Assembly (NCBI RefSeq): GCF_046105845.1 | Contig: NZ_CP151004.1 | Strand: one strand, 5' to 3' | Length of the DNA stretch: 64,000 bases | Source: Escherichia coli | Lineage (GTDB): Bacteria; Pseudomonadota; Gammaproteobacteria; Enterobacterales; Enterobacteriaceae | Shown here: in pieces, positions 41,715 to 42,994 of the stretch | Layout of the letters: each line of letters opens with the position of its first letter | Position numbering within the stretch: the first letter of the stretch is position 1 | The notes under the pieces: model-generated | The model's input: only the letters and a program-made list of their open reading frames with translations | Told to the model about the DNA's origin: nothing | The model's database searches: none | Made by a program: the position numbers and the translations under genes

Positions 41715-41795
41715 TGCTTAACTGGCGCTACGGCTGATGGCGCCAGTTATTCATTGCCACGTTATCTGTAAGCGATTATTCATAACGCAGACAAC

Positions 41796-41993
41796 TTAGT
41801 TAGAGTTAATTAGCTTATCAACCTCTGTAAGAGGTAAAGTTGTCACCTCTGCAACGTCTTCCCGAGACATTCCTTTACTCAGAAGACGCTGGGCGAATTC
41901 CTGACTTACCTCCTGTCTAACCGCCAGCCTTCCCTTCTCTTCAAACCACTGCGCCAACGTCTGCCTGGTTTCTCTCCGTGTCTTTATTTCCAT
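41796..41993 (-). pseudogene. Duplicated 3'-end fragment of an rpn-family (RpnC-like) gene
   Basis: 65-aa ORF ...TLAQWFEEKGRLAVRQEVSQEFAQRLLSKGMSREDVAEVTTLPLTEVDKLINSN parallels the C-terminus of the adjacent rpnC; DNA 41787-41960 is near-identical to 42053-42275 apart from lacking the pentapeptide repeat. Confidence 0.6.
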
Positions 41994-42061
41994 ATGTTCC
42001 CTTAATTATCTGGTCAGTTAACAATAACAATTATCTGGCTAAAACTGATAATGCAGATAAC

Positions 42062-42994
42062 TTAGTTAATCAGTTTATCAATCTCAGCAAGAGGTAAATT
42101 TGCCATCTCTGCAACGTCTTCCCGAGACATTCCTTTACTTAGAAGACGCAGGGCGAATTCCTGACTTACTTCCTGTCTTCCCTGCTGAATCCCCTTCTCA
42201 ATTCCTTTCTCCATTCCTTTCTCAATCCCCTTCTCAATCCCTTTCTCTTCAAACCACTGCGCCAGCGTCATCATTGACTCTCCTCCCGTTTCCCTGTCCC
42301 TCAACACACCATAAAACAAATCCGCTTGTTCAGTATGACCGCGTTGCAGCATATAGTTTTGCATGGCAACTAACTGACTTCCGCTAGTGTACCCTTCGTC
42401 GATCAGCGTGACCAGTTGCTCCAGCAATAACATTAAGTCGCGCTGGCGAATATGCTTTTGCAGTAGTTCGAGAATCGCAATCCGCCGGTGCTGCATGATT
42501 TCGTCATCCGGTGTGATGGTGATATCCACCAGCGGGAAAGGGTTGTTGTAAACGCGTCGCGCCAGCTCCGGCGAGTAAAACATATCAAACCAGCACATTG
42601 AGAGCGGATAAGGTGTGGCCTCGCCCTGATAAAACAGTATCGGCACCACCAGCGGCAGCTTATCGTGGTCAGCCTCCAGATGCCGGTGCATGGCGGCAAT
42701 AGAATAACGCATCATGCGAAAAGCCATTTTCTTATCTGGCTTGCTTTGATGTTCAATCACTACATGCAGATAACCGGGATTGCCCTGCATTTGCACGGAA
42801 TAGAGCACGTCCGTGCTGTGTCCTTTCAGGCTCTCTTCAATGAAACTCCCCGACTCTAAATGAAGCGTGTTGAGGTCACAAAGTTCGCGTAATTCCACTG
42901 GCAAATGTATCTCCAGAAAGTCGCGAGCCGTCTCCGCATGCATTAAAAATTGTTTAAATACCGCGTCATGCGGTGTGGTACTCGGTGCATCCAT
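42062..42994 (-). CDS. rpnC: Recombination-promoting nuclease RpnC (transposase_31 / PD-(D/E)XK family)
   Basis: 310-aa ORF MDAPSTTPHDAVFKQFLMHAETARDFLEIHLPVELRELCDLNTLHLESGSF...; C-terminus has repeats EKGIEKGIEKGMEKGIEKGIQQG; also named yadD. Confidence 0.9.
   Translation of the reverse strand: MDAPSTTPHDAVFKQFLMHAETARDFLEIHLPVELRELCDLNTLHLESGSFIEESLKGHSTDVLYSVQMQGNPGYLHVVIEHQSKPDKKMAFRMMRYSIAAMHRHLEADHDKLPLVVPILFYQGEATPYPLSMCWFDMFYSPELARRVYNNPFPLVDITITPDDEIMQHRRIAILELLQKHIRQRDLMLLLEQLVTLIDEGYTSGSQLVAMQNYMLQRGHTEQADLFYGVLRDRETGGESMMTLAQWFEEKGIEKGIEKGMEKGIEKGIQQGRQEVSQEFALRLLSKGMSREDVAEMANLPLAEIDKLIN
42189..42250 (-). repeat. In-frame 15-nt tandem repeat inside rpnC encoding a (G)IEKG pentapeptide, about 4 copies
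   Basis: Window sequence ccccttctcaat / tcctttctccat / tcctttctcaat / ccccttctcaat visible directly. Confidence 0.85.

Follow-up and report, generated by a model that had tools for sequence, protein, structure and literature searches.

Analysis of the 64,000-nt window, the whole stretch of DNA under study, revealed an interval that is very probably the E. coli rpnC-rpnCSs locus, an Rpn-family toxin-antitoxin module inserted between panC and panD. The analysis established the anatomy, homologies and polymorphism of the locus, the intactness of the rpnCSs open reading frame (ORF) and the predicted fold of its product. In the proposed mechanism the full-length product, RpnC-L, would act as a PD-(D/E)XK DNA endonuclease and be toxic if nothing opposes it, the toxicity being taken from the literature. 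RpnC-S, a predicted protein of 70 amino acids that would start in the same frame at the internal methionine M241 (position 42274) and form the C-terminal three-helix domain, may bind RpnC-L via its long first helix and so block the nuclease. A 12-nt repeat encoding KGIE would lengthen this first helix, and its strain-variable copy number would decide the pairing of S and L proteins. The second gene, rpnCSs, appears to be a duplicated free-standing S domain whose 5' end and Shine-Dalgarno sequence are new, kept intact in the E. coli genomes that carry it (about 29%). Its product would most likely serve as a second RpnS-type small protein (antitoxin or modulator), and the gene as a partner with which the rpnC tail recombines. 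RpnCSs is presumably expressed in this strain, and any binding partner assigned to it is likewise putative.

Rpn proteins (RpnL) have been described as toxic PD-(D/E)XK nucleases that are neutralised by small proteins translated from internal starts, RpnS (Zhong et al. 2023, PNAS 120:e2307382120, PMC10400941). This published framework of toxin, intragenic antitoxin and anti-phage activity was absent from the sequence-only reading of the same DNA, and it accounts for both the repeat and the second copy. The facts assembled in that reading add nothing new since they are present in the 2023 paper (PMC10400941); the repeat variation and the second copy are real, ordinary for the rpnC locus and already known.

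The rpnC gene, its KGIE repeat and the nested frame

The rpnC gene (yadD; 42062-42994, minus strand) is a 310-amino-acid ORF encoding RpnC-L, the PD-(D/E)XK nuclease toxin, and is flanked by panC (40863-41714, plus strand) and panD (43268-43648, plus strand). The pan cluster is reported to carry rpnC as an insertion (PMC5350276), and the syntenic gene is named rpnC in RefSeq. In agreement with the initial placement of Rpn proteins among PD-(D/E)XK nucleases related to Transposase_31, residues 7-207 of RpnC match Pfam Transposase_31 (PF04754, E = 4.7e-87), and the protein scores 293.5 bits against NCBIfam TIGR01784 of the Rpn family (cutoff 52.1). The PD-(D/E)XK catalytic residues of RpnA are D11, D63, E82 and Q84 (PMC5350276). 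Their counterparts D10, D62, E81 and Q83 were found in the RpnC translation (..PHDAVF.., ..STDVLY.., ..VVIEHQS..) with an offset of one residue, and the RpnA model alignment, which pairs protein residues 5-257 with profile positions 6-259, is consistent with this offset. Overexpression of K-12 RpnC is reported to result in DNA endonuclease activity, toxicity and SOS induction (PMC5350276). A PADLOC scan gave only weak tail matches (C3a178 and RmrA); its 2023 model library contains no Rpn model.

Comparison with complete genomes gave a best match of 96.4% for the 1451-nt interval. The earlier statement that K-12 carries a 300-amino-acid YadD about 70 bp from panC was correct: K-12 RpnC has 300 amino acids, with 73 bp from the rpnC stop to the panC stop. 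Relative to the window, K-12 lacks 36 bp, equal to three repeat units, and about 260 bp that include the second copy, so the suggestion that this strain has an extra tail copy and a longer repeat also held. Over the aligned stretch, which covers ~190 codons at the end of rpnC, the only differences from K-12 are the repeat indel and a small number of substitutions.

The repeat itself had been described as a 15-nt unit encoding a pentapeptide in about four copies. Tandem Repeats Finder instead gave a period of 12 with 5.0 copies and 85% matches at 42188-42247 (minus strand), within helix 1 of the rpnC tail. The product of this hypervariable repeat is a tetrapeptide, KGIE or KGME occurring four times followed by a degenerate KGIQ, and the window contains five KGIE units versus two in K-12. 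Assignment as a pentapeptide repeat protein (PF00805) was rejected, the period being 12 nt or four amino acids and the Pfam scan giving no Pentapeptide match. The copy number of the four-amino-acid repeats is reported to vary between strains and to set the pairing specificity of RpnS and RpnL; an experiment in which one KGIE repeat was added suggests that a mismatch abolishes neutralisation (PMC10400941).

The nested rpnCS frame (42062-42274, minus strand), the predicted intragenic antitoxin, comprises 70 amino acids (M241-N310) in frame within rpnC. It begins with an internal ATGATG (42274-42269) at codon 241 of 310, and a Shine-Dalgarno sequence, GGGAGGAG (42287-42280), precedes it in the arrangement GGGAGGAG-N5-ATGATG (42287-42269). 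The same start site is present in K-12 save for two substitutions. RpnS proteins are recognised by an in-frame internal start that lies some 60-70 codons ahead of the rpn stop and has a ribosome-binding site, followed after 8-20 residues by a four-amino-acid repeat in helix 1 of strain-variable copy number. Both features were found at rpnC, where the KGIE repeat starts 11 residues past M241 and the variable segment of the tail ranges from 13 to 41 amino acids among 56 loci. For K-12 RpnCS, ribosome profiling, tagging and a dinD-lacZ assay are reported to show that the protein is translated from the internal start and neutralises RpnL (PMC10400941).

The free-standing copy of the rpnC tail

As the sequence-only reading had noticed, the 3' end of rpnC recurs downstream. 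Repeat search and local alignment delimited a proximal copy (42048-42282, minus strand), which consists of the rpnC tail and about 14 nt past its stop, and a distal copy (41782-41974, minus strand), offset from each other by about 260-308 bp. The repeat search paired 41804-41939 with 42064-42199 (136 nt, 86%), 41932-41974 with 42240-42282 (81%) and 41782-41802 with 42048-42068 (90%). Gapped local alignment of the two copies scored 184, compared with 19.0 +/- 2.2 (maximum 26) in 200 shuffles.

The distal copy overlaps rpnCSs (41796-41993, minus strand), a free-standing 65-amino-acid paralogue of the RpnC tail without KGIE units, on the same strand as rpnC and 68 nt past its stop. The earlier statement that this ORF parallels the RpnC C-terminus but lacks the repeat was borne out by BLASTP against RpnC residues 235-310, with 44 identities in 76 positions (58%, E = 9e-24) and a sole gap of 16 amino acids exactly at the RpnC repeats. 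Its description as a 3'-end fragment was not accurate. The 5' end of rpnCSs differs from that of rpnC, consisting of 11 new codons (MEIKTRRETRQ), and the gene has its own Shine-Dalgarno sequence, AAGGGA. Moreover, the 68-nt spacer that separates the rpnC stop from the start of rpnCSs (41994-42061, minus strand) had no significant match to the sequence upstream of rpnC (score 20, shuffles 17 +/- 2.2).

The spacer contains the AAGGGA element (42003-41998) and two 10-nt direct repeats, CCAGATAATT. A 43-mer of the spacer (41996-42038) was invariant in 11 complete-genome loci and was matched exactly by 54 metagenome contigs; spacer and Shine-Dalgarno sequence are invariant among the genomes sampled while the adjoining coding DNA varies. 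A promoter scan upstream of rpnCSs found weak sigma-70 matches only (8 of 12), and a terminator scan found no terminator-like site between rpnC and rpnCSs. Between the convergent genes panC and rpnCSs lies a hairpin (41713-41755), an inverted repeat with 16-nt arms, 88% complementarity and an 11-nt loop, which is also present in K-12; as the hairpin has no T-run behind it, it was not flagged in the terminator scan.

Annotation pipelines label the 65-amino-acid gene inconsistently. RefSeq names for it include 'RpnC/YadD family protein', 'transposase' and 'hypothetical protein'; in two RefSeq genomes PGAP made it an incomplete pseudogene ('missing N-terminus'), and in Nissle 1917 it is present without any annotation.

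The AlphaFold2 model of RpnCSs has three helices, a long first one at residues 4-38 and two more at 43-50 and 54-62, with a mean pLDDT of 71.7. Superposed on the RpnA-S crystal structure 7TH0, it gave 1.1 A over 41 columns and a target-normalised TM-score of 0.79, a match that was non-significant in Foldseek (E = 3.5, rank 35). Foldseek of the model against the PDB returned no significant match, and generic helix-turn-helix domains equalled 7TH0 in score. PDB sequence searches with the 65-amino-acid protein and with a 34-sequence profile did not find 7TH0; the only PDB sequence match for RpnCSs was the repeat protein 8vd6 ('CAP REPEAT'), which has helix-turn-helix-like units. A Pfam scan of the 65-amino-acid protein found nothing significant, the NCBIfam match was under cutoff at 30 bits, and homologues carry the precomputed assignment PF27070.1, an entry apparently missing from the Pfam library scanned.

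Variation of the two tails and alternative explanations

Alignment to other E. coli genomes, which had been proposed for scoring presence of the copy and repeat number, showed that both are polymorphic. A 63-nt sequence specific to rpnCSs occurs in 1555 of the 5426 complete E. coli genomes (~29%), and a longer rpnCSs query found 1553; the sequence is always chromosomal, and the median copy number per genome is one. Of 58 evaluable loci, 57 have an intact ORF, in 30 distinct coding sequences, and the lone broken copy comes from a contig with 1.2x coverage. The lengths observed (65, 67, 69, 71, 73, 77 and 81 amino acids) all differ in frame. In the conserved core of rpnCSs, 87 non-synonymous changes were counted versus 39 synonymous, compared with 61 versus 67 in the rpnC tail; the excess in rpnCSs is compatible with diversifying selection and also with relaxed constraint. 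Free-standing copy and resident nested antitoxin hardly ever agree in length: the variable helices of RpnCSs and the co-resident RpnCS are unequal in 55 of 56 loci. Since independent length distributions predict 1.8 equal-length pairs and one was observed (P = 0.41), the mismatch is not above expectation and active avoidance of equal repeat lengths within a genome is without support. In this strain RpnCSs falls short of the co-resident RpnC by 16 amino acids, or four units, in the variable helix. Recombination between the rpnC and rpnCSs tails is shown by a fusion allele (L005) and by chimeric tails, which occur in the contexts of both genes.

It is improbable that the 65-amino-acid ORF is a scar without function, left by unequal recombination or by a tandem duplication at the rpnC 3' end, unexpressed and unselected, a view also implied by the PGAP pseudogene tag. 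In favour of a scar are its absence from ~71% of complete E. coli genomes, its labelling as an incomplete pseudogene in two RefSeq genomes and missing annotation in Nissle 1917, the lack of a convincing promoter in the scan and the excess of non-synonymous over synonymous changes in its core (87 versus 39). However, 57 of 58 loci have an intact ORF, across 30 coding sequences with in-frame length changes only, and the broken copy was read at 1.2x coverage; the Shine-Dalgarno sequence and the 43-nt spacer are invariant although the neighbouring coding DNA is variable; the rpnC tail, which is functional, has a similarly high non-synonymous share (61 versus 67); and the analogous K-12 ypaA is translated (PMC10400941). 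Hence the earlier view of the copy as a recombination footprint was retained as to its origin by duplication or recombination, but not as to its being passive, given the intact ORFs, the invariant spacer with its Shine-Dalgarno sequence and the fact that rpnCSs is a published gene.

The invariant spacer with its two 10-nt direct repeats also bears on the idea, which we regard as highly improbable, that the main function of RpnCSs is regulation by DNA binding as a small helix-turn-helix protein, perhaps as an autorepressor at the spacer CCAGATAATT repeats, and not antitoxin action by protein binding. Foldseek ranked helix-turn-helix DNA-binding domains (DeoR, KorB, resolvase and LuxR type) highest, weak Pfam matches to HTH_7 and HTH_3 occur, and HHpred relatedness to helix-turn-helix motifs has been reported together with the remark that many antitoxins double as repressors (PMC10400941). 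Every structural and Pfam match is non-significant, however (E >= 1 and E >= 0.28, respectively), the solved relative RpnA-S works by binding RpnA-L (PMC10400941), and a predicted DNA-binding role is compatible with antitoxin function. That rpnC and the small ORF form an insertion sequence or its remnant, the small ORF being a transposase fragment as the RefSeq label has it, is hardly credible. The Pfam domain name Transposase_31 points that way, as do the insertion of rpnC in the pan cluster (PMC5350276) and the best equivalog-type NCBIfam match, 'ISNCY family transposase', but with 333 bits this match fell far short of the 583 required. Flanking rpnC is an imperfect 18-nt inverted repeat (15 of 18), which is about chance level in 1.7 kb and has one arm in the spacer absent from K-12. 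The repeat search at the locus revealed no target-site duplication and no flanking direct repeat, and the sequence occupies a fixed position in single copy, with a median of one place per genome and all occurrences chromosomal. In rpn genes terminal inverted repeats and target duplications were not found and the ends are variable, so they are not considered transposases (PMC10400941). Insertion sequence or transposase identity was rejected on these grounds (inverted repeats, target duplication and multiple copies).

Within the preferred reading of the interval as the rpnC-rpnCSs toxin-antitoxin locus, a simple back-up antitoxin role for RpnCSs is doubtful because the protein has four units fewer than the resident RpnC, and the published experiment with one added repeat suggests that such a mismatch abolishes neutralisation. 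A more specific proposal, which we consider rather unlikely, is that RpnCSs is not a redundant antitoxin for the resident toxin but either a silent donor cassette swapping the rpnC tail or a non-cognate S protein. As a donor cassette it would act by homologous recombination or gene conversion and so switch toxin-antitoxin specificity, much as antigenic-variation cassettes do; the chimeric tails of both contexts and the fusion allele are compatible with this. As a non-cognate protein, RpnCSs would titrate RpnCS or guard against incoming rpnC alleles.

Comparison with known systems

The locus provides a good natural illustration of a gene-within-gene toxin-antitoxin system with partner specificity set by repeat number. 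It corresponds to the published rpnC/rpnCS/rpnCSs arrangement, in which some strains carry rpnCSs downstream of rpnC (PMC10400941), in gene identity, panC-panD position, nested S frame and KGIE repeat. There is no difference in kind, only an allele combination of its own (five units in RpnC, none in RpnCSs), and L005 is the counterpart of the fusion of an rpn N-domain to an Ss tail described there. The authors of that study speculated that RpnL may initiate duplication or recombination events, and the anti-phage role was demonstrated for the plasmid-borne RpnP2, not for RpnC (PMC10400941).

A further parallel is K-12 rpnE-ypaA (rpnESs), where a free-standing tail copy that has a Shine-Dalgarno sequence of its own likewise lies directly downstream on the same strand. 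With a KLEG unit more than its nested copy, YpaA is length-mismatched like RpnCSs, and annotators have also treated ypaA as a pseudogene; the YpaA protein was detected by tagging (PMC10400941), and RpnE is reported inactive. Whereas ypaA starts 12 nt past the rpnE stop at the same methionine as the nested start, rpnCSs has the 68-nt spacer and 11 new codons. RpnCSs is nearer to the RpnC tail (58%, E = 9e-24) than to YpaA (30% identity, E = 2e-4), in agreement with the independent origin stated in PMC10400941.

In type II toxin-antitoxin systems whose antitoxins are small helical or helix-turn-helix proteins, as in Rpn, a toxic enzyme is neutralised when a small helical protein from the same locus binds it directly, and there is a link to phage defence. 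Unlike in these systems, the Rpn antitoxin is nested in frame inside the toxin gene and is identical to the C-terminal domain of the toxin, and the rpnC locus carries a second, separate copy of the antitoxin domain. The TAEL repeat of HsdS (EcoR124I/EcoR124II), a comparison drawn in PMC10400941, is likewise a 12-nt, four-amino-acid in-frame helix repeat whose copy number alters specificity; the TAEL repeat determines how the DNA target is spaced, whereas the KGIE repeat sets the pairing of RpnS with RpnL.

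Gene layout, duplicated tail and repeat of rpnC

The interval belongs to the pan cluster of E. coli, in which panB (40057-40851, +) and panC (40863-41714, +) are followed by a 65-aa ORF (41796-41993, -), a 310-aa ORF (42062-42994, -), panD (43268-43648, +) and yadE (43652-44905, -). The 310-aa ORF was identified as rpnC (yadD). Pfam Transposase_31 (PF04754) matched its residues 7-207 (E = 4.7e-87), the NCBIfam Rpn-family model scored 293 bits (cutoff 52), and the syntenic gene is named rpnC by RefSeq in K-12 and other strains. D10, D62, E81 and Q83 of RpnC were found to be the counterparts of the RpnA catalytic set D11/D63/E82/Q84 (PMC5350276).

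Duplication of the 3' end of rpnC, claimed in the sequence-only reading, was confirmed. Repeat search found 41804-41939 and 42064-42199 to be 86% identical over 136 nt, with further repeat pieces on the flanks (41932-41974 vs 42240-42282; 41782-41802 vs 42048-42068). Gapped local alignment of the tail copies scored 184 against 19.0 +/- 2.2 for 200 shuffles, and at the protein level the 65-aa ORF matched RpnC 235-310 (E = 9e-24) with one 16-aa gap, exactly at the RpnC repeats. The distal copy, here rpnCSs, is more than the 3'-end fragment it had been called: it has 11 N-terminal codons unlike the rpnC tail (MEIKTRRETRQ), an AAGGGA Shine-Dalgarno 4 nt ahead of its ATG, and a 68-nt spacer (41994-42061) without significant similarity to the rpnC upstream sequence.

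Tandem Repeats Finder identified a 12-nt unit in 5.0 copies at 42188-42247, translated in rpnC as KGIE-KGIE-KGME-KGIE-KGIQ. Since the unit encodes KGIE-type residues, the repeat is a tetrapeptide and not the 15-nt pentapeptide unit first proposed. The K-12 state given in that reading, a 300-aa YadD and a short gap to panC, is accurate: the K-12 protein has 300 residues, and 73 bp separate the stop codons of rpnC and panC. Alignment to the window revealed that K-12 lacks 36 bp (three repeat units) and about 260 bp spanning the second copy.

Spread, signals and exchange of rpnCSs

The 63 nt specific to rpnCSs (41985-42047) occurred in 1555 of 5426 complete E. coli genomes, always on the chromosome and with a median of one copy per genome; a longer query found 1553 genomes. 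Integrity was analyzed in 11 complete-genome loci across the identity range and 54 metagenome contigs with the exact 43-nt spacer. The ORF was unbroken in 57 of the 58 evaluable loci, the sole broken copy being on a contig of 1.2x coverage; its 30 distinct versions encode proteins of 65, 67, 69, 71, 73, 77 or 81 aa. Annotation in the compared RefSeq loci (L001, L002, L004, L006-L012; H71, Nissle 1917) varies between 'transposase', 'hypothetical protein', 'RpnC/YadD family protein', a pseudogene 'missing N-terminus' and none. PF27070.1 is precomputed on several homologues of the 65-aa protein; Pfam profile search of the query did not report it.

A 43-mer including the Shine-Dalgarno (41996-42038) was identical in 11 of 11 complete-genome loci, while the adjoining coding DNA differs by up to ~13%; the 43-mer could be an operator, promoter or translation signal. 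On the minus strand the 10-nt sequence CCAGATAATT occurs twice in the spacer as a direct repeat, the copies lying 27 nt apart on either side of GTTATTGTTAAC. Sigma-70 matches upstream of rpnCSs are weak. The terminator scan found none between rpnC and rpnCSs, which makes it plausible that transcripts of rpnC or rpnCS run on into the small gene. Between the convergent panC and rpnCSs lies a hairpin (41713-41755; 16-nt arms) that has no T-run on either side. The K-12 pair rpnC-panC is listed among convergent 'excludons', in which transcription overlaps (PMC12288877); in the window, rpnCSs would fall in this overlap zone. An imperfect 18-nt inverted repeat (15/18; 42010-42027 vs 43066-43083) brackets rpnC. 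One of its arms is in the spacer missing from K-12, and by a rough estimate such a match is near chance level for the 1.7-kb region.

Pairwise codon differences in the RpnC N-domain (1183 synonymous vs 210 non-synonymous) show strong purifying selection. The non-synonymous share is high in both tails (61 vs 67 in the RpnC tail, 87 vs 39 in RpnCSs), which fits the reported hypervariability. At one locus (L005, NZ_CM135149.1) a 296-aa RpnC joins the N-domain to an Ss-type tail and the separate Ss gene is gone. Protein clusters contain chimeras in both directions, with MEIKT-type N-termini on K-12-type KVINLI ends and MMTLAQ-type starts on KLINSN ends, and further Ss genes have RpnCS-type variable segments (clusters P0002, P0011, P0018 and P0053). 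The fusion and the chimeric alleles indicate repeated exchange between the two tails. The O169:H41 locus (L004) equals the window over rpnCSs and spacer and has 33 differences (~7.6%) in the 5' part of rpnC (42638-43069), where K-12 is far closer to the window. These comparisons show a mosaic locus; the best match to the whole 1451-nt interval among complete E. coli genomes is 96.4%.

Length mismatch and readings of the second copy

The duplicated tail and the variable repeat were both reported by Zhong et al. 2023, PNAS (PMC10400941), so the phenomenon is previously published for the same gene and species. In that study, RpnL proteins are toxic DNA endonucleases, bound and neutralised by RpnS, a small protein identical to the Rpn C-terminal domain; each E. 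coli rpn gene has an internal start from which its RpnS is translated. One KGIE unit added to RpnCS or RpnC-LS abolished neutralisation unless both partners had it, and Ss genes can be lost via deletion or fusion to the rpn N-domain (PMC10400941). In the window, the internal start ATGATG (42274-42269), preceded by GGGAGGAG, predicts a 70-aa RpnCS.

In the window, RpnC has a variable segment of 33 aa and RpnCSs one of 17 aa; the RpnCSs segment is systematically shorter. The two lengths were equal in one of 56 loci (29 distinct pairs), with 1.8 expected if each length were drawn independently from its own distribution (P = 0.41); these 56 loci gave no sign of active within-genome avoidance of equal lengths. 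An AlphaFold2 model of RpnCSs built from a 34-sequence alignment has helices at 4-38, 43-50 and 54-62 (mean pLDDT 71.7), and Foldseek found no significant match in PDB. The dimeric three-helix bundle RpnA-S (7TH0; PMC10400941) superposed at 1.1 A over 41 columns (target-normalised TM-score 0.79), a non-significant match amid many helix-turn-helix domains.

In the best-supported reading, RpnC-L would be a nuclease toxin, RpnC-S from the nested frame its cognate antitoxin, their pairing would be tuned by KGIE copy number, and RpnCSs would be a maintained duplicate of the S-type small protein. That the 65-aa ORF is a dead recombination scar is unlikely, because the ORF is intact and its translation signals are invariant. 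Nor is an IS or transposase remnant supported: repeat search found no real terminal repeats, the position is single and fixed in complete E. coli genomes, and the ISNCY model scored under its cutoff. A helix-turn-helix regulator is suggested solely by Pfam and Foldseek matches, all non-significant, and would be compatible with antitoxin function. Under the toxin-antitoxin reading, RpnCSs is presumably made in the window strain and would bind a partner. A simple back-up antitoxin role appears doubtful because of the four-unit mismatch and the published effect of one added repeat; RpnCSs may act as a recombination donor or modulator. RpnC may have an anti-phage role, by analogy with plasmid RpnP2, the only one for which this is demonstrated (PMC10400941). 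What the sequence-only reading described is real, its repeat period aside, and its interpretation, which suspected a recombination footprint, was right in part.

Comparison with rpnE and ypaA

The published analogue of rpnCSs is ypaA (rpnESs), downstream of rpnE (PMC10400941). In K-12 (L067, NC_000913.3 2357816-2358001) ypaA starts 12 nt past the rpnE stop, behind AAGGAG. It is tagged as a pseudogene by RefSeq, and YpaA protein was detected by tagging (PMC10400941). YpaA has one four-residue KLEG unit more than the RpnE tail and is thus likewise length-mismatched.
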